From Nitrososphaera viennensis EN76 (GTDB taxonomy: Archaea > Thermoproteota > Nitrososphaeria > Nitrososphaerales > Nitrososphaeraceae), in contig NZ_CP007536.1 in assembly GCF_000698785.1 (NCBI RefSeq), forward strand, positions 1,590,001 through 1,622,000: a stretch of DNA of 32,000 nucleotides, in the 5' to 3' direction. The notes below the pieces were generated by a model, which was given only the letters and a program-made list of their open reading frames with translations, made no database searches and was not told the DNA's origin. A program made the position numbers and the translations under genes. Each line of letters opens with the position of its first letter. The stretch's first letter is position 1. Below are positions 10,594 through 32,000 of the stretch, one piece after another.

Positions 10594-10989
10594 GCTGCCT
10601 TTTTTCTTGTAGTAATCTAAAAGATAAGCGACATCTCGCATTTCTTTGTCGAGATGTTTTAGTTCAAAATTCGCAATATCTTGCTGTCCGCCAAAAAGAT
10701 TGTTGGAGAGTGCTTTCTTACTGGATTCTAGGTCTTTATGATAAACCGCCAGCGCATTGCAGATCAACCCTAAGTTGTATCGGATGAGGTTTTCTGCCGT
10801 TTTATCGATAAACTTCTGTCTTAGTTGGTTACATCGATCTGCATGTGCATCTAGGTCTTTAATCATCACTCCGTTACCGATTTTGACCAATTCATCAGTC
10901 TTTAGACTTTCTAGGCGCTTTGCGAGATGCCCCAAAGCGCGGGCAATTATATCATAATCTGAATCGCCTTCGTCAGACAACCAAATCAT
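10588..10989 (-). CDS. Hypothetical helical protein (133 aa) between the two IS fragments
   Basis: AT-richer ORF, MIWLSDEGDSDYDIIARALGHLAKRLESLK.... No motif recognised. Confidence 0.5.
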   Translation of the reverse strand: MIWLSDEGDSDYDIIARALGHLAKRLESLKTDELVKIGNGVMIKDLDAHADRCNQLRQKFIDKTAENLIRYNLGLICNALAVYHKDLESSKKALSNNLFGGQQDIANFELKHLDKEMRDVAYLLDYYKKKGSS

Positions 10990-11053
10990 GGTAAATACTC
11001 CTGTAAGAAATATCTTTTGTCTTTACCAACCAGCTTGCAACAACCAAAACGAA

Positions 11054-11389
11054 CACCTAGGGAATTCAACGGAACCAATATTTTCGTTGAGGGCGTACAG
11101 CTCTGGTGTAAACGTATTCCAGAATGCCAAGCGCGTTGAGAATTGCGGGATTGCCAAGCGTCAAACAAACAACAGGATTGAGCGCATGAACGGCACTCTG
11201 CGTGAAAGGGTAAAGGTACAGCGCGGCTGGAAAACTATCAAAACGCCGCTTGCAGAAGGCAACAGGATTCAGTACAATTTCGTAAAGCCACACATGGCAA
11301 TAGATGGAAAAACGCCAGCTCAAGCAGCGGGTATCGGAACGGAAGGAAAAGACAAGTGGATGGAGTTGATCAGAAATGCGAAAAAGTAG
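11054..11389 (+). mobile_element. Second, longer 3' fragment of the same transposase family
   Basis: ...NSTEPIFSLRAYSSGVNVFQNAKRVENCGIAKRQTNNRIERMNGTLRERVKVQRGWKT...NRIQYNFVKPHMAIDGKTPAQAAG. No N-terminal catalytic region (ORF 10988-11389). Confidence 0.65.
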
Positions 11390-18498: not shown

Positions 18499-18774
18499 TT
18501 GGATACCGTTTATAGAAACGACGCATCTGGGGGCCGAAGCGTGGAAGCTACTCAACTACATCCACCAAACATCAAACAATCACGACCCCGGGTGCTGAAT
18601 TTCTTGCTCTGTCCGTCATGCTACTGGTCTGCCTCAGATATTGCGAATTGGAAGCCGGACGCCTGTCCCACGTGCAAGAGCTCCCCGATAAGCTGCATTC
18701 CAGTCAAACTGGACAGCTACAATGATAATGGTAGCAGTAATAATAATACACGCATTATTCGCCAGACTCTATAA
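18499..18774 (+). CDS. Small CxxC...CPxC zinc-finger protein with an Asn/Ser-rich tail
   Basis: ...FLLCPSCYWSASDIANWKPDACPTCKSSPISCIPVKLDSYNDNGSSNNN.... Paralogue of 28882-29337. Start uncertain (TTG). Confidence 0.5.
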   Translation: MDTVYRNDASGGRSVEATQLHPPNIKQSRPRVLNFLLCPSCYWSASDIANWKPDACPTCKSSPISCIPVKLDSYNDNGSSNNNTRIIRQTL

Positions 18775-23030: not shown

Positions 23031-23162
23031 ATGAGCAAACATATGCAAGGTTCCCGGTCCACATATCGTTTGTCCAAGTTTGCAAGTAACATAGAGCTAT
23101 CAAAGCACATAGATAGAATGCATCAAGGTTCTGGTCTTTTGGGAGATTCGCGTCAACGGTGA
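23031..23162 (+). pseudogene. Degenerate paralogue of the C2H2 mini-protein at 26121-26249 (Cys ligands lost)
   Basis: ..RSTYRLSKFASNIELSKHIDRMHQGSGLLGDSRQR versus ..SCPYCQSKFASNEELSKHIDRLHHGSGLLEGDSSRW. Both Cys are replaced (Ser, Arg); the His pair is kept. Confidence 0.35.
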
Positions 23163-23218: not shown

Positions 23219-23524
23219 ATGCCCGGTCAGAGATGCAGGGACCTATGCAAAACTCTTCAAGCAAAGAAAACAGGATTCTCAACTAGTCCTTATTTAGAAG
23301 GTCTGAAAAAGTGCACAGTTTGCGCAATCTATGTGAAGACCGATTCCAAGTACTGTCCATGCTGTAATTACCTACTCCGGACTAGAGCAAGAAGCAAAAA
23401 GACAAAGATATTCGCGGCGAAGATTCCTGGAAATCGAGATTATCAATTATGTCGACCATCAAGAACTGCAGGAATAATCGAAATCGCACACTTGTCAGAG
23501 GTGACAAGAAATCATCTACCCTGA
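23219..23524 (+). CDS. Small Cys-rich (zinc-ribbon-like) basic protein
   Basis: RCRDLCKTLQ...KKCTVCAIYVKTDSKYCPCCNYLLRTRARSKK, 101 aa, AT-richer region. Confidence 0.5.
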   Translation: MPGQRCRDLCKTLQAKKTGFSTSPYLEGLKKCTVCAIYVKTDSKYCPCCNYLLRTRARSKKTKIFAAKIPGNRDYQLCRPSRTAGIIEIAHLSEVTRNHLP

Positions 23525-24306: not shown

Positions 24307-24903
24307 TCACACTATATTCTCGGTGTCTACAGTGAAGGAGATCACACTGTCAGTAATTTCAAAATCTACTTTCTTCAGTCCGAAATCCTCAAACATAAAC
24401 TGGTACTGGTTTGAAATGTAGAGCGACCACTTTTTCCCCATTTCATGTTGAATGGTATAGGAATGTTTTGAGTAGTTCACCTCATGTCTGTATGGATAAC
24501 CTGCTATCCTTATCCAGGTTTCTACTACATCCAGAACAGACGTTATATTGTACTCGTTTCTTAGCATCAAGACAAAATTCTTGGTCTCTTTCTTGGCGAT
24601 GTATTCGGCTATCTCAACTAGCTCGCGGTCTGTAGCCAATTCTAGCAGTTTTACTATCAATCCCCTTCTGACCGTCAAGAACCCTGCCTTTGCTGCATTA
24701 GAATGCCAGTCTATATGTTGTTTGAATATCTGTCCGGCAAGAGCGTTAAGGCTTATCTCCTTCTGTTTTGCGTCGTTTCTTAGCCTTTCAATTATTGAGG
24801 TATCCAGTCTAAAAGCTATAGTTTCTGTCTTGCCACTAAGACTACCCATAACCATATGCGCATTGGTGCTGTTGATAAATGTATTTTTCTCGTGCGCTGC
24901 CAT
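24307..24903 (-). CDS. RHH (CopG-like) DNA-binding protein with a conserved C-terminal KWSLY domain, copy A
   Basis: GKTETIAFRLDTSIIERLRNDAKQKEISLNALAGQIFKQHIDW (strand-helix-helix) ... IQHEMGKKWSLYI. The ORF is open to 25029; ATG at 24903 matches the N-terminal length of copies B and C. Confidence 0.7.
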   Translation of the reverse strand: MAAHEKNTFINSTNAHMVMGSLSGKTETIAFRLDTSIIERLRNDAKQKEISLNALAGQIFKQHIDWHSNAAKAGFLTVRRGLIVKLLELATDRELVEIAEYIAKKETKNFVLMLRNEYNITSVLDVVETWIRIAGYPYRHEVNYSKHSYTIQHEMGKKWSLYISNQYQFMFEDFGLKKVDFEITDSVISFTVDTENIV

Positions 24904-25030
24904 ATTCGAATTGTTTGTCAGGTGAAGAAACAAAAAGATATTCTCGATGTATGCTACAAGGAATGTTGCATATACTATTACGCCTAGTCCGGCCGTATCT
25001 TGATACGCAGCAAAATCGCAAGATAACATT

Positions 25031-26002
25031 TCACTTCATTCTACCACCAGAATCTGGAGTCCCGGCAGCCTTTTCCCTTTTCACACGAACTACTGACAAT
25101 GACAGGGCACCGCCAAGTATCAAGCCTATCACCACAAGCGACACGGTGACCGGAATGTGAAGAACGTCTGAAGCAACCATCTTCACGCCTATGAACAGCA
25201 ACAGTGCAATGAGCGCTGGCTTTAGGTAATAGAATTTCTCCATCATCCCGGCAAGCAGAAAGTACAGGCTCCTGAGGCCGAGGATCGCAAAGACGTTTGA
25301 AGTTATGACGATAAAGTGGTCGCTGGTAATCGCAAGCACGGCAGGAATCGAGTCGATGGCAAACACAAGGTCGGTCATCTCGACTATGACAAGCGCGACG
25401 AGCAGAGGAGTGGCGTACAGGACTCCTCCTATCCTTGTGAGGAACCTCCCGTTGTGCAGCTCGGAGGAAACAGGGATCATCTTCTTCAGCATCCTGACTG
25501 CGAGGTTCTTTTCTACCTCGATCTTTTTCTCCTTCTTCTGCACGATCATCCTGGCAGCCGTGAGCAGCAGCATGCCGCCAAAGATAAAGATCATCCAGTG
25601 GAACGTTTCAAGAAGCGACACTCCCACGATTATCAGCGGTATCCTCATCGCTATCGCGCTCAGGATCCCGACGGAAAGGACCCTGTGTTGCATGGCGTGC
25701 GGCACGCCAAGCGACGAAAATATCAGGAGAAATACGAACATGTTGTCGACGCTCAGCGACTTTTCGACCACGTAGCCGGTGACAAACTCGAGCATCTTGT
25801 CACGGCCCATCTGGACGAGGACGAGCGCCGCAAAGACTGCCGCAAGCCCTATCCAGATAATGGTCCATATGAGGCCCTGTCGGAACGCGCTCGTCTCATG
25901 GGCGACCTGCGGCATGCGCCCGGCCAGCCTTCTTATGGCGCCTATCAGCCCTAGGTCTATTGCAAGCGCGACGCCCACAAAGAGCCCGAACAGGACCCAC
26001 AT
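25031..26002 (-). CDS. terC: TerC-family integral membrane protein
   Basis: EKSLSVDNMFVFLLIF and DLVFAIDSIPAVLAIT repeat motifs, about 8-9 TM helices. TTG at 26023 or ATG at 26002. Confidence 0.9.
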   Translation of the reverse strand: MWVLFGLFVGVALAIDLGLIGAIRRLAGRMPQVAHETSAFRQGLIWTIIWIGLAAVFAALVLVQMGRDKMLEFVTGYVVEKSLSVDNMFVFLLIFSSLGVPHAMQHRVLSVGILSAIAMRIPLIIVGVSLLETFHWMIFIFGGMLLLTAARMIVQKKEKKIEVEKNLAVRMLKKMIPVSSELHNGRFLTRIGGVLYATPLLVALVIVEMTDLVFAIDSIPAVLAITSDHFIVITSNVFAILGLRSLYFLLAGMMEKFYYLKPALIALLLFIGVKMVASDVLHIPVTVSLVVIGLILGGALSLSVVRVKREKAAGTPDSGGRMK

Positions 26003-26120
26003 CCCAAGGCCGCCTTCAAACAATCAACGTGTCTGCTTGGCCGGCGTATTTGGGCAGCGCGTCCACTTTGCAACACAATGTAAACACGCCTGCTAAATAG
26101 CAGGAAGGAACAGTATTGTC

Positions 26121-26249
26121 ATGAAAGACAAGGCGGTGTCATGCCCGTACTGCCAGTCCAAGTTCGCAAGCAACGAGGAGCTGTCAAAGCACATCGACAG
26201 GCTGCACCACGGCTCGGGCCTACTTGAGGGAGACTCGAGCAGGTGGTGA
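26121..26249 (+). CDS. C2H2 zinc-finger mini-protein (42 aa)
   Basis: MKDKAVSCPYCQSKFASNEELSKHIDRLHHGSGLLEGDSSRW (C-x2-C-x12-H-x4-H). Divergent from terC and directly upstream of RHH copy B. Confidence 0.5.
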   Translation: MKDKAVSCPYCQSKFASNEELSKHIDRLHHGSGLLEGDSSRW

Positions 26250-26312
26250 TCTTTTTTCTTATCATGCAAATCTTTTAATTCTGTTCAAGCCCAAGCCTGA
26301 CAGACGCCCATT

Positions 26313-26858
26313 TTGCACAAAAGCGAAGCCGAGTCCCAGAAGGGCAAGACCGGAACCATTACGTTCAGGCTGCCGTCCGCCCTGATAGAAGAGCTCAGGC
26401 GCGATGCCGAGGTCGAGGGAGTGAGCCTCAACAGCTACGCGTCCAAGATCTTCTCCAACCACATACTCTGGGAGAGGTATGAAAGGAAGGTTGGCCTCCT
26501 GCCCATGACTGAGGCCTTCCTGAAGGAGACGCTCCACCAGCTGAGCGACGAGCAGGTGGTGAACCTCGCGCAAAAGCTGGAGAAGCAAAAGTTCAAGAAC
26601 ATACTGGCCTTCATGAACGACAACCCTACCGTGGGGGACTTTGCAGAGCTCATAAGGACGTGGCTAAACGTGTCGTGGATGCAGCAGAACGTCGAGGTGA
26701 ACGACGGAGCGTACCGGCTCAAGATACAGCACAACCTCGGGAGCAAGTGGTCGCTCTATGTCAGGACGCTCGTGTCAGAGCTTGCGCAGGACGTCCTGGG
26801 CAAGAAGGCCGGCATCAAGGTCGTGGGAGAGACCATAACGTTCTCGTTTTCCGACTAG
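26313..26858 (+). CDS. RHH (CopG-like) + KWSLY-domain protein, copy B
   Basis: GKTGTITFRLPSALIEELRRDAEVEGVSLNSYASKIFSNHILW ... IQHNLGSKWSLYV. TTG start. Confidence 0.75.
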   Translation: MHKSEAESQKGKTGTITFRLPSALIEELRRDAEVEGVSLNSYASKIFSNHILWERYERKVGLLPMTEAFLKETLHQLSDEQVVNLAQKLEKQKFKNILAFMNDNPTVGDFAELIRTWLNVSWMQQNVEVNDGAYRLKIQHNLGSKWSLYVRTLVSELAQDVLGKKAGIKVVGETITFSFSD

Positions 26859-26949
26859 CGTTCTGATCAGTTTCAGGTCACGTGCCAACGTAGTCGGTTA
26901 TCTTTGGAGCCCTCTTGGCGCGCCTGCCTATCAACTTCAGCACCCTTTC

Positions 26950-27590
26950 CTAGCTTTCTGTCATGGCACCCATCATCTGCAGGAGCTCTAGCGCGTTTGT
27001 GGGCGCTTTTGCATTGTAGTGGTTGTTAAAGTATGCGAACGTCTCGGCCTTTGCAGTTATTGTTTTCATGTTTTTGCCCAAGACGACAGCTCATATTCAG
27101 AATATTTGTGGTCAAACCAGATTTTCTTCCCTCCTGCCGTGTCATCGCAGAGTCCTTACATTTGATCACGACATTCCCTTGATCGCGACGCATTCTTAAC
27201 AGCTATGCTGCTCCTACGTTGAGATCTTTGACATCTATGACTCCATCTATAATACCCGCATCGTTATACAAGATGAAGTGATTTGAGCCTGTAACGCACG
27301 TGTTAGCCCTAAAACATGATGAATTTGATCCCCAATGACTCTCGACATCCTTCGGTTGTTGCATATAACATTACCACTAGTCTTAGTGCAATTCGTTATT
27401 CACCAAAATCGAAAGATAATTATTTCTTTTCTTAGAAATGTATGTAGGAGTCTCGCCGTTTGTTCAAAATCTGCGGGACTCATGTCGTATTTGTCTGCAT
27501 CGCCGGACATAGGTGGAAAAACTATGCACCCTGATGCTTTTTGGCAGATTATGCATGACAGCTACAAGTTCATGAACTATACAAGGGGCG
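26950..27590 (-). pseudogene. Decayed DUF72-family gene (multiple frame breaks, N-terminus missing)
   Basis: Minus-strand pieces lie in three frames: ..VFPPMSGDADKYDMSPADFEQTARLLHTFLRKEIIIFRFW*, ..KIWFDHKYSEYELSSWAKT*, and MKTITAKAETFAYFNNHYNAKAPTNALELLQMMG (26950-27069). Order and motifs (RxxSW; Y-Y-S-E-E-L-x-x-W-A; YFNN....A..NA..L) follow DUF72. Confidence 0.45.
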
Positions 27591-27631
27591 GTTAGGGTCC
27601 TCTCCTATTATGTACATCATTGCCTCTCCCC

Positions 27632-28186
27632 TCAGAAAACACCTCCAATTCCCAAGTTCCCCATTGGCATCCCCTGGGGGGTGGAAACCGCGCTGGTGTT
27701 GGGGTCAACAGTCATCTTGTAGAGCATCCCGCTGTCAACATCCGCGACTGTGATGCTATAGACTACCATATTGCCCTGTGAAACTTCAATGTCGCCTGCA
27801 ATTGCTATGCCATTAGGAATCTGGTCTTCTGCTACATCGGCCGCGTCGACTAGTGTTATGGTGACGTTTTCAAAGTTTGTTACGTTGCCAGCAGCACCAC
27901 CAAGCTCGGCCAAAGGCGTTCCTTCTGTAGATGTGGCAAGAACTCTTCCCGTGCTAGGATCGACGTACACTTTGTATGCCAGCTCGCTATTTAGGTCGGC
28001 CACCGTGATTTTGTATACAAGAGAGTCCTGCACTGCGTCCAAGCTGCCAGCAACCACCGTGCCGTTAGTGATCTGCTCTTCTGCCAAGTCAGTCGCATCC
28101 ACCAGAGTCGCATTAAGGTGCTCGTTCAAAAAGTCCTTTGCTGCCTGTTTGACGTTTATGGTGCCGTTCAGCTGCATTGTTGTCAT
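27632..28186 (-). CDS. Tandem PepSY-domain protein (no signal peptide in this frame)
   Basis: Two repeats: AAKDFLNEHL..VDATDLAEEQITNGTVVAGSL..VYKITVAD..AYKVYVDPSTGRVL and ..LVDAADVAEDQIPNGIAIAGDI..VYSITVAD..LYKMTVDPNT. Confidence 0.75.
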   Translation of the reverse strand: MTTMQLNGTINVKQAAKDFLNEHLNATLVDATDLAEEQITNGTVVAGSLDAVQDSLVYKITVADLNSELAYKVYVDPSTGRVLATSTEGTPLAELGGAAGNVTNFENVTITLVDAADVAEDQIPNGIAIAGDIEVSQGNMVVYSITVADVDSGMLYKMTVDPNTSAVSTPQGMPMGNLGIGGVF

Positions 28187-28383
28187 AGTAGTAGTATTGT
28201 TATTACTAGTGGTGGCAGCTGCGCAAAAGCACTCAAAGGCGTGACCATCGTAGTAGTCGTCGTCATCACTGTTCCCAAAGATGGGAGAGCAGCAAGCACC
28301 AAGCCAACAACAACAGCCGCAACAACTACCGAGGACAGCACCGTGGGATTCAAGAATTTTTTACTTCGGGTTAGACCTGACAT
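28183..28383 (-). CDS. Membrane-anchor ORF, probably the detached N-terminus of the PepSY protein
   Basis: MSGLTRSKKFLNPTVLSSVVVAAVVVGLVLAALPSLG... poly-Thr. Its stop overlaps the PepSY ATG (ctATGAca). The PepSY frame stays open upstream (..AAATTSNNNTTT-M). Confidence 0.45.
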   Translation of the reverse strand: MSGLTRSKKFLNPTVLSSVVVAAVVVGLVLAALPSLGTVMTTTTTMVTPLSAFAQLPPLVITILLL

Positions 28384-28881
28384 TAATACAATTTTCACAG
28401 TTAGCCATCTTAAAACTTGGGTAACACAATTGAGTATCAATCCCATCTGAAATATTCATAACAGAACTTTCTCAAGCTAGGCCTAGGATGTCTGCCAACG
28501 TAAAATCACACCGCTACTAATATGCTACTGCTGCTACCATCAATCGACATGAATCATGATGACGATTATGATAACCTGAAATAGCCCAGAATGCAACAAT
28601 GTGAACAAACAAGTGTACATGAGAACCCTTCTTTCCCATCCTTGCCAAGCAAGCGAACATGCTTGTCAGATTTTATCTTGACCGCCGTCCCTCCCTCTTT
28701 ATCCCCGCAGCAGCACTTCCTGCCATACGCATGCACACGAAACCGTTACACGAGTGCGCACACGCACATTTTTGAACAGTAACGACACAAAACCGTCACA
28801 GCAGAGAGTAAGGAGCACCAGCACGGCCAGCTGCACACATCCTAACTTTTTTAAGTTCTACCAGCACATCATCTACACGAT

Positions 28882-29337
28882 GTGACTCTTCGTAATTTTG
28901 TCAAAACTAATTCTTCCCTGTTAATAGTGGCCGCATTTGCTCTGCTTTGCGATGCACTTCTTTCGCATAAAGAAGCCTCGCGGCACATGAGTGCTGCGAC
29001 CATGGTCGTCTATGCCATGAAGGAAGAAACAGCAGCTACATTCACTAATGCTAATGTTGCCAATGCAAAGGACGATGTCAGGTCAAGCCTTTTCCGGGCT
29101 AGAAAAAGGACATCTGACGGCAAGACGCGGCAGGCCAAATTTCTGATTTGTGACGGCTGTTTCTGGTGCGCATCATTGATTTCGATAGAACCTTTGCACA
29201 AGGGTGAATCCAGGATCGTAAGCTGCCCTGCGTGTGATGGCAGACAAGTAGAGTCGCTTCCTGTATCAATCGACAACAACAACGATGATGATTACGACGG
29301 CGTAGATGCTGCTGCAAGTCTTGGACAACAACAGTAA
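28882..29337 (+). CDS. CxxC...CPxC zinc-finger protein with an Asn/Asp-rich tail (paralogue of 18499-18774)
   Basis: ...AKFLICDGCFWCASLISIEPLHKGESRIVSCPACDGRQVESLPVSIDNNNDDDYDGVDAAASLGQQQ. GTG start; internal ATGs are possible. Confidence 0.55.
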   Translation: MTLRNFVKTNSSLLIVAAFALLCDALLSHKEASRHMSAATMVVYAMKEETAATFTNANVANAKDDVRSSLFRARKRTSDGKTRQAKFLICDGCFWCASLISIEPLHKGESRIVSCPACDGRQVESLPVSIDNNNDDDYDGVDAAASLGQQQ

Positions 29338-29464
29338 GAAAAGCGATTTCTGGTCATCCCCATTACTACGGCCATTGTTGTACGTCTAGAATCAAAATAT
29401 TATCTTACCCGCGCCAGCTACGGCCGTTTTTAGTGTATTGAAAAAATATGTGTATGAAGTGCGC

Positions 29465-29701
29465 CTATGCCGTAGTCTGTACTTCTATTACCCAGTCGCA
29501 CTTCATTCCAAGCTTCTGATGGGAATTTTCTACTGCTTCCTTATTGGGAGCATCCAGAATGCAGAAAACTTTGTTCTCTTGCTTGTTGTAAAGGATGTTC
29601 TTGTGCGTGATTCCAAATTCATCTGTTGGTGATTTCTGCGCCTGCTTTAGTGCCTCTTCTTCTACAGGACCCATTGGATGCGAATCAAGAAATGTTGGCA
29701 T
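29465..29701 (-). CDS. DUF4242-family protein
   Basis: MPTFLDSHPMGPVEEEALKQAQ...DEFGITHKNILYNKQENKVFCILDAPNKEAVENSHQKLGMKCDWVIEV follows the DUF4242 pattern (MP.F+D.H ... VFC+.eAP..eAV...H). Confidence 0.7.
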   Translation of the reverse strand: MPTFLDSHPMGPVEEEALKQAQKSPTDEFGITHKNILYNKQENKVFCILDAPNKEAVENSHQKLGMKCDWVIEVQTTA

Positions 29702-29877
29702 TACTACAGTTTTCGAGTCCGACGCTTTAAGGCTTCTTTCAGAAATTTACTAAATGTGCTAACCGAAAAATCTACTATGACATATATTATGAAACCCGGC
29801 AGGATATTCTGCTGTCAGTCAATTCACTCTATTACCCTAGGTTCAAAAAAAGGGAATGGTGATGATGATGCCACCTA

Positions 29878-30000
29878 CTACTGCTGCTTCCGGGAAGTAT
29901 CTTGGTGGAATCTCTTGAGGTGGTACTTCAGTTGCCCCTCACTTCCGCCCACGTCCTTGTTGCAGTAAACACATCTCCAAACTTCTTTGATTATTCCCAC
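29878..30000 (-). CDS. C2H2 zinc-finger mini-protein (40 aa, GTG start), divergent from amoC
   Basis: (V)GIIKEVWRCVYCNKDVGGSEGQLKYHLKRFHQDTSRKQQ, with an AT-rich TATA-like stretch upstream on the minus strand. Not in the ORF track. Confidence 0.4.
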   Translation of the reverse strand: MGIIKEVWRCVYCNKDVGGSEGQLKYHLKRFHQDTSRKQQ

Positions 30001-30270
30001 TTCGTCATTTCAAGAAGACATAATTTTAAAAAATTTACAATCCTGCAAAAATTGCCTATGTCGGCTTTTGCCAAGCCGCTTCATAACTCTTTAAGCATAC
30101 TCCTTATCTTGTTTCTTCCCTCTTGCGGACGACGACGTAACTTGGAAAAATAAAAAGATATTTTGCAGAGTTTCTTTTCGCTCTTATTGCTCCTCTCAAG
30201 CGCATCAACTTGCTCGCCTGTGAGAAAAGGAGCTTATACTGATGGCCGCGGCAGCATCTGAAATAGACAA

Positions 30271-30285
30271 GTCTGCAGTGCAGAC
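30271..30285. promoter_or_regulatory. Inverted repeat GTCTGCA-g-TGCAGAC
   Basis: 7-bp arms at 30271-30277 and 30279-30285, in the amoC upstream region. Confidence 0.4.
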
Positions 30286-30388
30286 ATCATGACTCCAATA
30301 TCGCGACCAAGAAATAGAATTAGAAAAGTCGCAGTCTCTGCAAACACCGAGAAACGAGCATTATCTTGAAATGCAGTAAAGCAGAGTC

Positions 30389-30442
30389 TGCACATGCATG
30401 CACTTTATTGCAGGGATTTGCATGGAAATGCATGTTTTTGCA
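30389..30442. promoter_or_regulatory. Helically phased array of six TGCA motifs (exact 10-bp period)
   Basis: TGCA at 30389, 30399, 30409, 30419, 30429 and 30439, plus one at 30395. Those at 30395, 30419 and 30429 extend to TGCATG. Lies about 195-250 bp upstream of the amoC ATG. Confidence 0.6.
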
Positions 30443-30636
30443 AAGAATGCCTATCGATATTATAAATCATTATTGCTCATCCTGAACAACATATAATTTC
30501 TATAATAACTAGCTCTTGTCAGTGTGACTAATAGCACAGTATCCAATGCATGTCTGTAAAATGTATATCATTACTTGTAGATTTTGCAACACAAGTAATT
30601 AGAATTACGATTTTCTATAAATGGCGAGGAACTAAA

Positions 30637-31200
30637 ATGGCACAAATGCCTGCACTGATACCAAAAGAAGTCGAAATACAGAGGCTGAAAAAGATCTACA
30701 TCTTTGTCATATGCCTTGGTTCTATCGCAGCCTCCGTCGAAGTCGACAACTTCGTCGATGGCTCGCTGCACCAGACTGCAATCAGAGACTCGGCCTTCAC
30801 GCCGGCCCACTGGTGGCTGTACAGCCACTTCGTGGCCCTTCCAATCGGCTGGGGCATGGTGGCCATGTACGATAGAAGGGTCCCGGTACTCAGAGGTCCA
30901 GGCAACTCGATGAACACGGGCTTGAAGATAACCATCATTGGCTATCTGGCAACCATGTTCACCATAGGTGTGAATGAACTCTGGCACTTCTGGTTCGTGG
31001 AAGAAATCTTCTCCGTTCCGAACCACTGGATGTTCAACATGGGTGTCGTAGTGGCATTCATGGGCGCTCTGGCCTATGTCGTCAGAGTGTACGCCAGACT
31101 GGTGGAACTGGGTGCAGAAACACCAGCAAAGAACCCGTATGTAGCAGAGTTGTACAAGCTAGCGCTGGAAGGCAAGCTGTACAGCAGGTCGATACCGTAG
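30637..31200 (+). CDS. amoC: Ammonia monooxygenase subunit C (archaeal type), solitary copy
   Basis: MAQMPALIPKEVEIQRLKK...FVDGSLHQTAIRDSAFTPAHWWLYSHFVALP...NELWHFWFVEEIFSVPNHWMFN...YSRSIP matches archaeal AmoC along its whole length. The longer ORF from 30550 is unlikely. TATAAA at 30616-30621. Confidence 0.9.
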   Translation: MAQMPALIPKEVEIQRLKKIYIFVICLGSIAASVEVDNFVDGSLHQTAIRDSAFTPAHWWLYSHFVALPIGWGMVAMYDRRVPVLRGPGNSMNTGLKITIIGYLATMFTIGVNELWHFWFVEEIFSVPNHWMFNMGVVVAFMGALAYVVRVYARLVELGAETPAKNPYVAELYKLALEGKLYSRSIP

Positions 31201-31275
31201 GAAAGAACAAACGAACAAAAAAGAGACATACATACACACACCGAGATAGAGGGAGAGAATATACGCATCTGTGCT

Positions 31276-31325
31276 GAGGACAGGGAGGGACTGTGCTGGT
31301 TTCCCTGTCCTCATTTTCTTTTCTT
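31276..31325 (+). terminator. Hairpin plus T-rich tract downstream of amoC
   Basis: GAGGACAGGGA (31276-31286) pairs with TCCCTGTCCTC (31302-31312), then attttcttttctt. Lies between the convergent amoC and RHH copy C. Confidence 0.5.
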
Positions 31326-31342
31326 AAAACAAATAGAGAAGG

Positions 31343-31900
31343 TCAGTTTTTGTATTCGAGCGATACAAGCGAGTCGCTTATGAAAAAAACTGGCGCTTTT
31401 CCAAACGCCTCCAGCGTAGACTCGAGCATTATCTTCAGGTAGAGGGACCAGTTCTTTCCCAGATCGTGTTTTATGATTATGTTATGGCCGCCGTCTTCTC
31501 GCGTGCGGTGCGCGACTTCGCAGCCCGAATTCTTCATCCTCATCTCGATCCATGAAATGAATGCATCAGAATTGAATCTGCCCTGTACAAAGATTGACAT
31601 ATCGATGGCGGTACTCTTTCCAATTCCATTTGCAAGCTTTTCGACCTCGTCCTGGTTCATACTTGCAAATATGCTTGCCAGCACCGGTTTTGGAAACGGC
31701 ATCATTCCAATCTTGGATTCAAACAGGTCCCATTCAACATGCTGGCGCAATACCTGGTTAATGTATGCGTTAAGGCTTGTCTGCCTTTTTTCTGATTCTG
31801 CGCGCAGTTTCTTCATTACGGCCGAACTGACACGAAAAGTTGCATTGACAGAGTCTTCATGAAACGTGCTACTATCTTCTTTGAAATCAGCTTCATGCAT
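31343..31900 (-). CDS. RHH (CopG-like) + KWSLY-domain protein, copy C
   Basis: NATFRVSSAVMKKLRAESEKRQTSLNAYINQVLRQHVEW ... IKHDLGKNWSLYL. Convergent with amoC. Confidence 0.75.
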   Translation of the reverse strand: MHEADFKEDSSTFHEDSVNATFRVSSAVMKKLRAESEKRQTSLNAYINQVLRQHVEWDLFESKIGMMPFPKPVLASIFASMNQDEVEKLANGIGKSTAIDMSIFVQGRFNSDAFISWIEMRMKNSGCEVAHRTREDGGHNIIIKHDLGKNWSLYLKIMLESTLEAFGKAPVFFISDSLVSLEYKN

Positions 31901-32000
31901 ATGTGTATGTGCATATGTACAATCTATGGTCTGTAATTATAGTCTAGGTTAACCATGTTAACTGTCTGAAGCAGCGCCGCGCGATGCAGGCCCGGCAAAA

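Follow-up and report, generated by a model that had tools for sequence, protein, structure and literature searches.

Ribbon-helix-helix paralogs, their conserved neighbours and a candidate terC/ZF1 operator in Nitrososphaera viennensis EN76

Is a group of three genes that recurs within a few kilobases of archaeal DNA one regulatory cassette used twice, or a set of separate units that happen to lie close together? The question is raised by a 32,000-nt stretch (hereafter the window) of the genome of Nitrososphaera viennensis EN76, a soil ammonia-oxidising archaeon (AOA). An earlier note made from the letters alone had described here, at two loci, a triad of a C2H2 mini-protein (ZF1 or ZF2), a polytopic membrane protein (TerC or AmoC) and a member of a ribbon-helix-helix (RHH) family (RHH-A, RHH-B or RHH-C). 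All seven open reading frames (ORFs) that it listed were found at the coordinates it gave. On comparative grounds, however, the window holds three separately conserved modules side by side, namely terC/ZF1/RHH-B, amoC4/RHH-C and NVIE_018990/RHH-A, and not one cassette twice. These three modules, together with control of terC and ZF1 by RHH-B through an element in the spacer between the two genes, make up what we consider the best explanation of the locus, at a probability of roughly 0.55.

One cassette twice or three modules

The RHH genes are related as the earlier note had held: RHH-A, RHH-B and RHH-C align over their full lengths at 24-30% identity (30% for RHH-A and RHH-B) and are true paralogs. 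Not so the mini-proteins. BLASTP produces no alignment between ZF1 and ZF2 even at E <= 100, a tblastn search with either one fails to recover the other, and all that they have in common is the generic C-x2-C...H-x4-H pattern. The layouts differ as well. At locus 1, a 118-bp gap separates ZF1 from terC, and RHH-B follows 63 bp downstream of ZF1 on the same strand; at locus 2, the distance between ZF2 and amoC is 636 bp, and amoC and RHH-C converge. The description of the same triad at both loci is thus correct in that a mini-ORF, a membrane protein and an RHH paralog occur at each, and incorrect in that the minis are unrelated and the geometry is not kept.

Neighbourhoods were compared at 119 loci (80 from species genomes and 39 from metagenomes) containing 139 RHH genes. 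The species set was ranked by RHH-A, which left RHH-B orthologs under-sampled, and direct look-ups of RHH-B were added later; a metagenome scan by RHH-C alone gave no matches, and its alignment-based repeat supplied the 39 loci. Proteins with at least three transmembrane segments accounted for 13/202 immediate neighbours of the 139 RHH genes against 34/661 in the background (p = 0.34), that is, no excess, and the membrane neighbours found (DUF7144, M48 peptidase, EamA, CitMHS, LPG synthase) are mutually unrelated. When TerC, AmoC, ZF1 and ZF2 were searched by tblastn against the 80 genome loci, partners appeared in close relatives only. What most often adjoins an RHH gene is a second RHH paralog (26/119 loci), in many cases in tandem at about 90 bp, and the Nitrosopumilus copies have housekeeping genes around them (M1 aminopeptidase, TFB, methylmalonyl-CoA mutase small subunit, IlvC). 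Within 3 kb of amoC at ten further loci, which stand for three contexts, there is neither an RHH nor a zinc-finger gene. The profile search and neighbourhood statistics that had been proposed as a check uncovered a large AOA family, and no modular cassette of the three parts that recurs. The suggested link between membrane genes and the family is seen for terC with RHH-B and for amoC with RHH-C, with no general enrichment beside it.

ZF1 (AIC16161; 26121-26249, + strand; 42 aa) contains a single putative C2H2 finger, C-x2-C-x12-H-x4-H, which scores 21-23 bits on zf-C2H2 and zf-C2H2_4 against cut-offs of 25-27 (E 1e-4 to 3e-4). Its family comprises 92 clusters across the AOA with conserved ligands (VSCPYCxSKF...ELSKHIDRxHHGSGLLEGDxRKW), and the HGSGLLEGDxRKW tail is conserved too. 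A ZF1 gene adjoins terC and RHH-B at six compared loci (L005, L029 and L141-L144). In N. gargensis and another Nitrososphaerales genome, as well as in Nitrosopumilus, the family's core locus is flanked by genes for an HD hydrolase and a PduO-type adenosyltransferase; other ZF1-family genes adjoin the HD hydrolase or an SDR. By these comparisons, the AOA as a whole have a C2H2 micro-protein with its ancestral place beside the HD hydrolase, and ZF1 is a paralog of it. At three loci (L085, L086, L130) the ZF1 homolog is directly upstream of, and abuts, the HD-domain (YfbR-like) hydrolase gene, with the PduO-type cobalamin adenosyltransferase gene adjoining; N. gargensis has two ZF1 copies with identical core sequence, one at the HD hydrolase locus and one at terC. 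The window contains a further ZF1-like ORF (23031-23162, +), 61% identical to ZF1 in amino acids and 77% in nucleotides, that has lost both zinc-binding cysteines and is divergent from the gene for a cytoplasmic Zn-dependent alcohol dehydrogenase (ADH). Its ortholog in L005 differs by 2 synonymous and 12 non-synonymous codon changes plus an indel, and the remnant in L006 is more degraded; this progressive decay identifies the ORF as a dying ZF1 duplicate.

ZF2 (29878-30000, - strand) is a 40-aa C2H2/BED-like mini-ORF with x13 spacing that reaches 21.3 bits on zf-BED against a cut-off of 20.6 (E 2.7e-4). One homolog was found, P0194 in L129, which is 82% identical in amino acids and sits between a ferredoxin and a P450-like gene, away from amoC; the two loci are 84% identical over 228 bp, including 100 bp upstream. 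No gene is called for ZF2 in L001-L003, and none of the five other RHH-C/amoC loci has it. As far as these occurrences indicate, it is a rare mini-ORF, unrelated to ZF1 and not tied to amoC. The 100 nt upstream of it (30001-30100) are about 85% conserved with L129, as strongly as the ORF, and the conserved unit may consist of a promoter and a micro-ORF, or be a small RNA. Conservation of the mini-ORFs is accordingly borne out by the many clusters of the ZF1 family and not by ZF2, with its single homolog in another gene context.

How, then, does the idea of a modular cassette (a C2H2 finger of about 40 aa, a polytopic membrane protein and an RHH-KWSLY protein) deployed twice stand? Each locus does bring a mini-ORF, a multi-pass protein and an RHH paralog together within 2 kb, locus 1 is kept as a three-gene unit, and two C2H2 mini-ORFs in 9 kb exceed about tenfold the 0.21 expected from how often they occur in 689 kb of related AOA DNA (P(>=2) ~0.02 in what is a post hoc test). 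The contention that the two loci are more than chance retains this mildly unusual density of minis; the membrane neighbours add nothing to it. The lack of detectable kinship between ZF1 and ZF2, the differing geometry, the occurrence of ZF2 homology only away from RHH-C/amoC loci, the residence of other ZF1-family genes beside an HD hydrolase or SDR, the ordinary frequency of membrane neighbours over the 139 RHH genes and the placing of the third ZF1-like copy beside a cytoplasmic ADH all speak against it, and we regard a twice-used cassette as very improbable. Each RHH paralog is ancient and has its own orthologs, so that their proximity in N. viennensis represents a juxtaposition of modules. 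RHH-A and RHH-B lie on different contigs in another metagenome-assembled genome (L006, L029). Repeats common to both loci consist of coding-sequence paralogy and one unexplained 63-nt repeat, nothing else; in the latter, 27357-27419, downstream of RHH-B, is 71% identical to 24964-25026, just upstream of RHH-A.

Of the three modules, the second consists of RHH-C (AIC16171; 31343-31900, -) and its convergent partner amoC4 (NVIE_019080; 30637-31200, +), an orphan copy of the gene for ammonia monooxygenase (AMO) subunit C. The AmoC assignment is secure (PF04896, 55 bits against a cut-off of 26.7; 87-96% identity to many AOA AmoC proteins). At all six loci with RHH-C orthologs of at least 52% identity (L064, L090-L094), amoC is convergent about 100-140 bp away, and in the longer of these loci homology to N. 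viennensis ends at amoC plus RHH-C, the flanks being unrelated. amoC4 is highly expressed, with a log2 RPKM (reads per kilobase per million) of 14.1 among the entries of the Reyes et al. supplement, which also carry its locus tag and that of terC; AmoC4/C6 peptides have been detected in the AMO complex (PMC10030591). Located 48 nt upstream of RHH-C, GTTAACCATGTTAAC (31948-31962) is conserved with the 76%-identity ortholog in L090, is the sole match in the window with fewer than three mismatches and is absent from the amoC4 promoter. It is a weak candidate for an RHH-C autoregulatory site.

The third module pairs RHH-A (NVIE_019000, AIC16159; 24307-24903, -), which has the N-terminal RHH and the C-terminal domain of the family, with NVIE_018990 (23637-24047, +), a gene of unassigned function whose locus tag is inferred from gene order. 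RHH-A orthologs are 54-95% identical in L005-L017. The NVIE_018990 homologs (125-136 aa; no Pfam family) are convergent with the RHH-A ortholog at a distance of about 50-70 bp in L005, L006 and L007, and lie nearby in L031. The Reyes 2020 supplement has an entry for NVIE_018990 at a log2 fold change of +2.96 (about 8-fold up) under copper limitation. RHH-C and RHH-A are each probably a dedicated regulator or partner of the paired gene, though a binding site was found for neither. Next to this module, 23219-23524 (+) encodes a small zinc-ribbon protein of the C4 type that ends in a basic tail (C-x3-C...C-x2-C...CPCC...RSKK). Homologs of it are found within about 0.2-1.5 kb of RHH-B-like genes at ten Nitrosopumilaceae loci (L038-L040, L044, L046, L047, L051, L052, L054, L057) and also near RHH-A orthologs in Nitrososphaera, while some 430 kb of other loci contain none. 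The association of this zinc protein with RHH genes may be broader than that of ZF1.

A candidate operator between terC and ZF1

The first module is the one for which a mechanism can be proposed. terC (NVIE_019010; 25031-26002, -) encodes a membrane protein of the TerC/Alx family (PF03741, E 1e-47, 162.5 bits; TIGR03718, 340.7 bits against a cut-off of 246.4). It is divergent from ZF1, which is followed by RHH-B (WP_075054996; 26313-26858, +), a putative autoregulated transcription factor encoded identically on CP103305.1 and CP104300.1. The arrangement is kept in N. gargensis, N. evergladensis and L143/L144, with identities of 63-73% for TerC, 76-78% for ZF1 and 70-79% for RHH-B, while the flanks differ; it is present too in the close relatives L005 and L029. 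The direct look-ups of RHH-B found the module in four further Nitrososphaeraceae lineages, one of them widespread (206 contigs). RHH-B orthologs also occur in Nitrosopumilaceae, at 45-53% identity, with no TerC or ZF1 at those loci. RHH-B may in addition have a promoter of its own, to judge from a T-tract that follows ZF1 and a conserved CTTTTAAT some 40 nt ahead of the RHH-B gene. Other Nitrososphaera have, after RHH-B, a conserved gene for a protein with a winged helix-turn-helix, a transmembrane segment and an acidic tail, no homolog of which is found in the window; here RHH-B is followed by a 43-aa ORF (26950-27081, -) matching the C-terminal end of DUF72 only, and thus a gene remnant.

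Among the entries of the Reyes et al. supplement, terC shows low expression and a log2 fold change of +0.93 under copper limitation, and terC, NVIE_019060, NVIE_019070 and amoC4 all fall between +0.5 and +1.0. The window does not contain the motif that Reyes et al. describe for copper limitation, and in no part of it does a riboswitch or any other Rfam family reach its gathering score.

The 118-bp control region between terC and ZF1 (26003-26120) carries GCAACACAATGTAAACAC. When the corresponding spacers from six Nitrososphaeraceae are aligned, three blocks are conserved and the remainder is variable. The first, GTATTT (26046-26051), reads as the TATA-like AAATAC on the terC strand, and the third, CTAAATA (26093-26099), is TATA-like and lies 21 nt before the ZF1 start codon; both are presumptive promoter elements. 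The central block is ACTTTGCAACACAATGTAAAC, and its pattern, AYTYTG-N5-CAAKGTAAAC, occurs only in 10 terC/ZF1 loci of the 144 loci scanned. The candidate RHH-B operator, ACTTTGCAACACAATGTAAACAC (26065-26087), with the core GCAACACAATGT, keeps its position in the 10 loci.

The same core is found at -48 to -283 and at +60 to +173 of Nitrosopumilaceae RHH-B orthologs. These genes have neither terC nor ZF1 nearby; the element therefore tracks RHH-B, and not TerC or ZF1. Its consensus in Nitrosopumilaceae is tA..GTAGCAACACAATGTAAyACAA. The element has AACAC repeats 11-12 bp apart or at times is a perfect palindrome, either GCAAYACAWTG-N5-CAWTGTRTTGC or GCAACACATTGTGTTGC. The 13-mer GCAAYACAWTGTR has 30 matches in 174 kb of RHH-B-type loci, compared with 0 in 206 kb of RHH-A-type loci, 1 in 324 kb of RHH-C-type loci and 0 in 109 kb of amoC/zinc-finger loci (1 match in 639 kb of other AOA loci combined). 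Looser matches elsewhere are inside coding regions and do not have the extended consensus.

This distribution bears on whether ZF1, rather than RHH-B, might be the DNA-binding regulator of terC, RHH-B being its co-factor or having a separate function. ZF1 is divergent from terC across the 118-bp spacer and is conserved there, and a viral archaeal C2H2 micro-protein binds DNA (PMC3541406). The element, however, also occurs at RHH-B loci that have no ZF1 gene and is missing from the 109 kb that include the ZF1/HD-hydrolase loci; moreover, a single finger reads 3-4 bp, not a repeat of about 18 bp. A leading role for ZF1 is improbable.

Most likely, RHH-B acts locally as a transcription factor of terC and ZF1 and regulates its own gene. 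A dimer of RHH-B dimers would occupy the GCAACAC-containing element at 26065-26087. Bound there, it would be flanked by the TATA boxes of terC and ZF1, which stand back to back, and would control terC, ZF1 and probably RHH-B itself; the position of the sites implies autoregulation. Repeats one helical turn apart would fit binding by an RHH dimer of dimers, as judged from what is known of Arc and MetJ. The near-invariance of R19 and N40 in the RHH family, and the presence of a conserved, repeat-containing site next to RHH-B genes, are indirectly consistent with the predicted binding of an RHH dimer. The C-terminal domain would read a signal that modulates RHH-B, and a metal ion is a guess prompted by the link to terC. 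The comparisons directly yield paralogy, conserved adjacency and the conservation and specificity of the motif; from these we infer binding of RHH-B to the motif, the direction of regulation and the ligand. The regulatory role that had been attributed to a repeated triad would then apply to locus 1, with its operator-like element in the terC/ZF1 spacer, and not to a triad as such.

The RHH family and the weighing of the readings

What kind of protein is RHH-B? A profile built from the three paralogs found 1,078 clusters at 90% identity, in which every listed member bearing a source name is called hypothetical, and an exhaustive HMM search gave at least 1,122 clusters at 50% identity (E <= 1e-10). 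In the latter, nearly all members are 170-200 aa long (typically about 180) and match from end to end; the names found in the sources are hypothetical or, wrongly, HicB. RHH-A, RHH-B and RHH-C have in common R19, W53, G61 and I-x-H-x2-G-x-KWSLY. Across 126 representatives with a median identity of 23%, R19, N40, W53, G61, H140, G143 and S147 are kept in 86-94%. These residues fit a DNA-contacting RHH plus a conserved junction motif, and not a recognisable metal site. N-terminal RHH profiles (CopG/HicB/Arc) are matched by 44/48 members: CopG_antitoxin by 44/48 (best E 2.5e-6; E 4e-4 for RHH-A) and HicB by 39/48, with most single-protein scores below the curated cut-offs. A sequence search of the PDB gave a weak match of the N-terminus to Arc repressor. 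With a strand and two helices in about 45 aa and these profile matches, the proteins belong to the RHH superfamily.

The C-terminal 120 aa match no Pfam family in the 48 members and have no informative sequence relative in the PDB. AlphaFold2 models of the RHH proteins alone, a check the earlier note had proposed, have a pLDDT of about 80 (80.8 for RHH-B). In RHH-B an extended segment precedes helices 22-35 and 39-60; the RHH helices are followed by three helices and then by beta-beta-alpha-beta-beta. Aligned by hhalign with a V4R fragment from the same genome, the C-terminal domain shows no profile similarity. In Foldseek searches with this domain, natural matches are 8-18% identical and de novo designed proteins rank higher. 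Taken together, the comparisons argue that RHH-A, RHH-B and RHH-C are ancient paralogs, each with its own orthologs, in a real, conserved and undescribed family. At soil metagenome loci L100-L124, two RHH paralogs stand in tandem on one strand, about 90-115 bp apart; they are about 35% identical to each other's closest window homolog, which suggests old, retained tandem pairs.

RefSeq names WP_075054996 a 'toxin-antitoxin system HicB family antitoxin', and RHH-B does score 23.6 bits on Pfam HicB against a cut-off of 21. For RHH-B, and with it RHH-A and RHH-C, to be a HicB-type antitoxin is nevertheless barely credible. The match spans residues 7-45 only, the RHH segment of about 40 aa; neither HicA nor any other toxin gene is adjacent in about 125 loci, where the neighbours are terC, amoC and housekeeping genes; and one subfamily is single-copy across AOA families, unlike mobile toxin-antitoxin pairs. 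Membership in the HicAB systems was likewise rejected in that no toxin-like neighbour is seen in the window or the approximately 125 loci, and the RHH is N-terminal, not C-terminal.

A number of points count against control of terC and ZF1 by RHH-B through the spacer element and against the module scheme of which it is part. The window has a single motif site (26070-26087), and 29% of shuffled sequences give at least one match, so that by count it is compatible with chance; the weight of the motif rests on its position across species, not on the count in the window. N. gargensis and L143 have a diverged version of the element, and at 5/19 RHH-B-type loci over 300 bp separate the site from the gene. 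Since syntenic orthologs make up many of the loci compared, the motif counts correspond to fewer independent events than their size implies. It could also be some other factor that uses the motif, with RHH-B simply among its targets. The beta-strand residues (T-x-T/S-x-R) do not set RHH-B clearly apart from RHH-A and RHH-C and so give no specificity argument for it. The C-terminal domain has one invariant histidine only (H140), a poor signature for a metal site, and its Foldseek matches (BcsD, a Bet3-type TRAPP subunit, H-NOX) are weak (E 3e-3 to 0.15, TM 0.47-0.52). Finally, modules 2 and 3 are convergent, which is not the classic layout of a regulator and its target, and no convincing motif was found common to the amoC4 and RHH-C promoters, or to the amoC promoters of five loci.

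Should one then suppose no functional link at all, but an abundant RHH family, inherited synteny and a motif that is an ordinary feature of RHH-B promoters for other or basal factors? The great size of the family, the frequency with which its genes adjoin one another (26/119 loci), the placing of the Nitrosopumilus copies among housekeeping genes, and the wholly comparative nature of the evidence, drawn in part from syntenic orthologs, would agree with this. On the other hand, terC/ZF1/RHH-B and RHH-C/amoC persist in genomes whose flanks differ, the motif lies upstream of TATA-like boxes and is not itself one, it is found both before and after RHH-B and can be palindromic, and it survives between families in which RHH-B is only about 50% identical. 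We therefore think the absence of any link unlikely, though it deserves to be taken seriously. Control of terC and ZF1 by RHH-B remains the preferred explanation. It can be carried further, tentatively and with a still smaller chance of being right: the RHH-KWSLY proteins might be lineage-specific, ligand-sensing one-component regulators, with an RHH-B/GCAACACAATGT pair extending from marine Nitrosopumilaceae to soil Nitrososphaeraceae and with RHH-C as a switch for AmoC4. If true, RHH-C would decide when AmoC4 is made, that is, it would govern switching of ammonia monooxygenase isoforms under stress.

The neighbourhood is rich in metal-related genes, including those for a two-PepSY-domain protein, an SCO4226-like nickel-binding protein and an ArsR-type helix-turn-helix regulator. 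Metal-related genes lie at 27632-28186 (-) and 29465-29701 (-) of the window and, just past its end, at 16069-16599 of L001; several such genes beside or between the loci are mildly up under copper limitation among the expression values at hand. Elsewhere in the window, ORFs at 18499-18774 (+) and 28882-29337 (+) have a zinc-ribbon-like segment in common (C-x2-C-x-W...CP-x-C...P-V-x-[LI]-D; BLASTP E 1e-6) and form a further small paralogous zinc-protein family with no Pfam match. An integrase-core (rve_3) fragment at 10988-11389 (+), in a dip of GC content to 0.42 from about 0.53-0.57 in the surroundings, is probably the remnant of an insertion sequence.

Relation to known systems

To our knowledge, almost nothing is known of gene-specific transcription control in AOA, for which we are aware of no routine genetics, and the role of multiple amoC copies is, as far as we know, still debated. 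Hodgskiss et al. (PMC10030591) report no shared promoter motif for the amo genes. Against this background, an unannotated family acquires several handles: a predicted DNA-binding domain, a candidate operator found across AOA families, a target promoter (terC/ZF1) and a paralog locked to amoC. The RefSeq name of RHH-B is corrected, and the idea of a repeated three-part cassette should be dropped. None of this is surprising in principle; it offers AOA biology a testable candidate pair of transcription factor and operator, and a candidate amoC-linked regulator.

Among zinc-finger micro-proteins of archaea, the Haloferax C(P)XCG proteins and the viral AFV1p06, a C2H2-type DNA binder (PMC3541406; PMC6562870), are the closest comparison for ZF1, a protein of 40-45 aa with a single predicted finger. 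ZF1 differs in its classical C-x2-C-x12-H-x4-H arrangement and in the HGSGLLEGDxRKW tail, and PMC3541406 reports no AFV1p06 homolog in Thaumarchaeota. As to the C-terminal domain of the RHH family, its helix-beta-beta-helix-beta-beta order recalls H-NOX, Bet3-TRAPP and BcsD, with the family's H-x2-G-x2-WS at the junction of beta2 and helix; the fold matches are weak, V4R profile similarity is absent and the RHH family has no heme-ligand motif.

In bacteria, TerC/Alx genes are controlled by the yybP-ykoY (Mn2+) riboswitch. The target family is the same here (TIGR03718 is titled 'R_switched_Alx'), and both cases imply tight local control of terC. The two differ in that Rfam detects no riboswitch in the window, so that control of terC would be a protein-based analogue, a counterpart of riboswitch control exerted by a protein at a divergent promoter.

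The RHH proteins themselves invite comparison with the Arc/MetJ/CopG repressors and with NikR. With the former they have in common an N-terminal strand-helix-helix, with its weak Arc/CopG/HicB matches, and repeats in a candidate operator; the half-sites of the P22 Arc operator are one helical turn apart. Arc and CopG, however, are about 45-55 aa long and have no sensor domain, whereas the present family has about 180 aa, of which a 120-aa C-terminal domain is outside Pfam, and its DNA binding is predicted only. NikR likewise joins an RHH DNA-binding domain to a C-terminal regulatory domain and is encoded beside a metal-related transporter gene, a place taken here by terC. The C-terminal fold of RHH-B, three helices and beta-beta-alpha-beta-beta, differs from the ACT-like ferredoxin fold of NikR, and there is no sequence similarity. 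A NikR-type assignment was tried and rejected: no NikR match appears in Pfam or the PDB, and the domain has H140 only in place of a His/Cys cluster. Set beside these systems, what is plausibly new in N. viennensis is an RHH one-component regulator that combines a C-terminal domain lacking a Pfam family with a conserved candidate operator.

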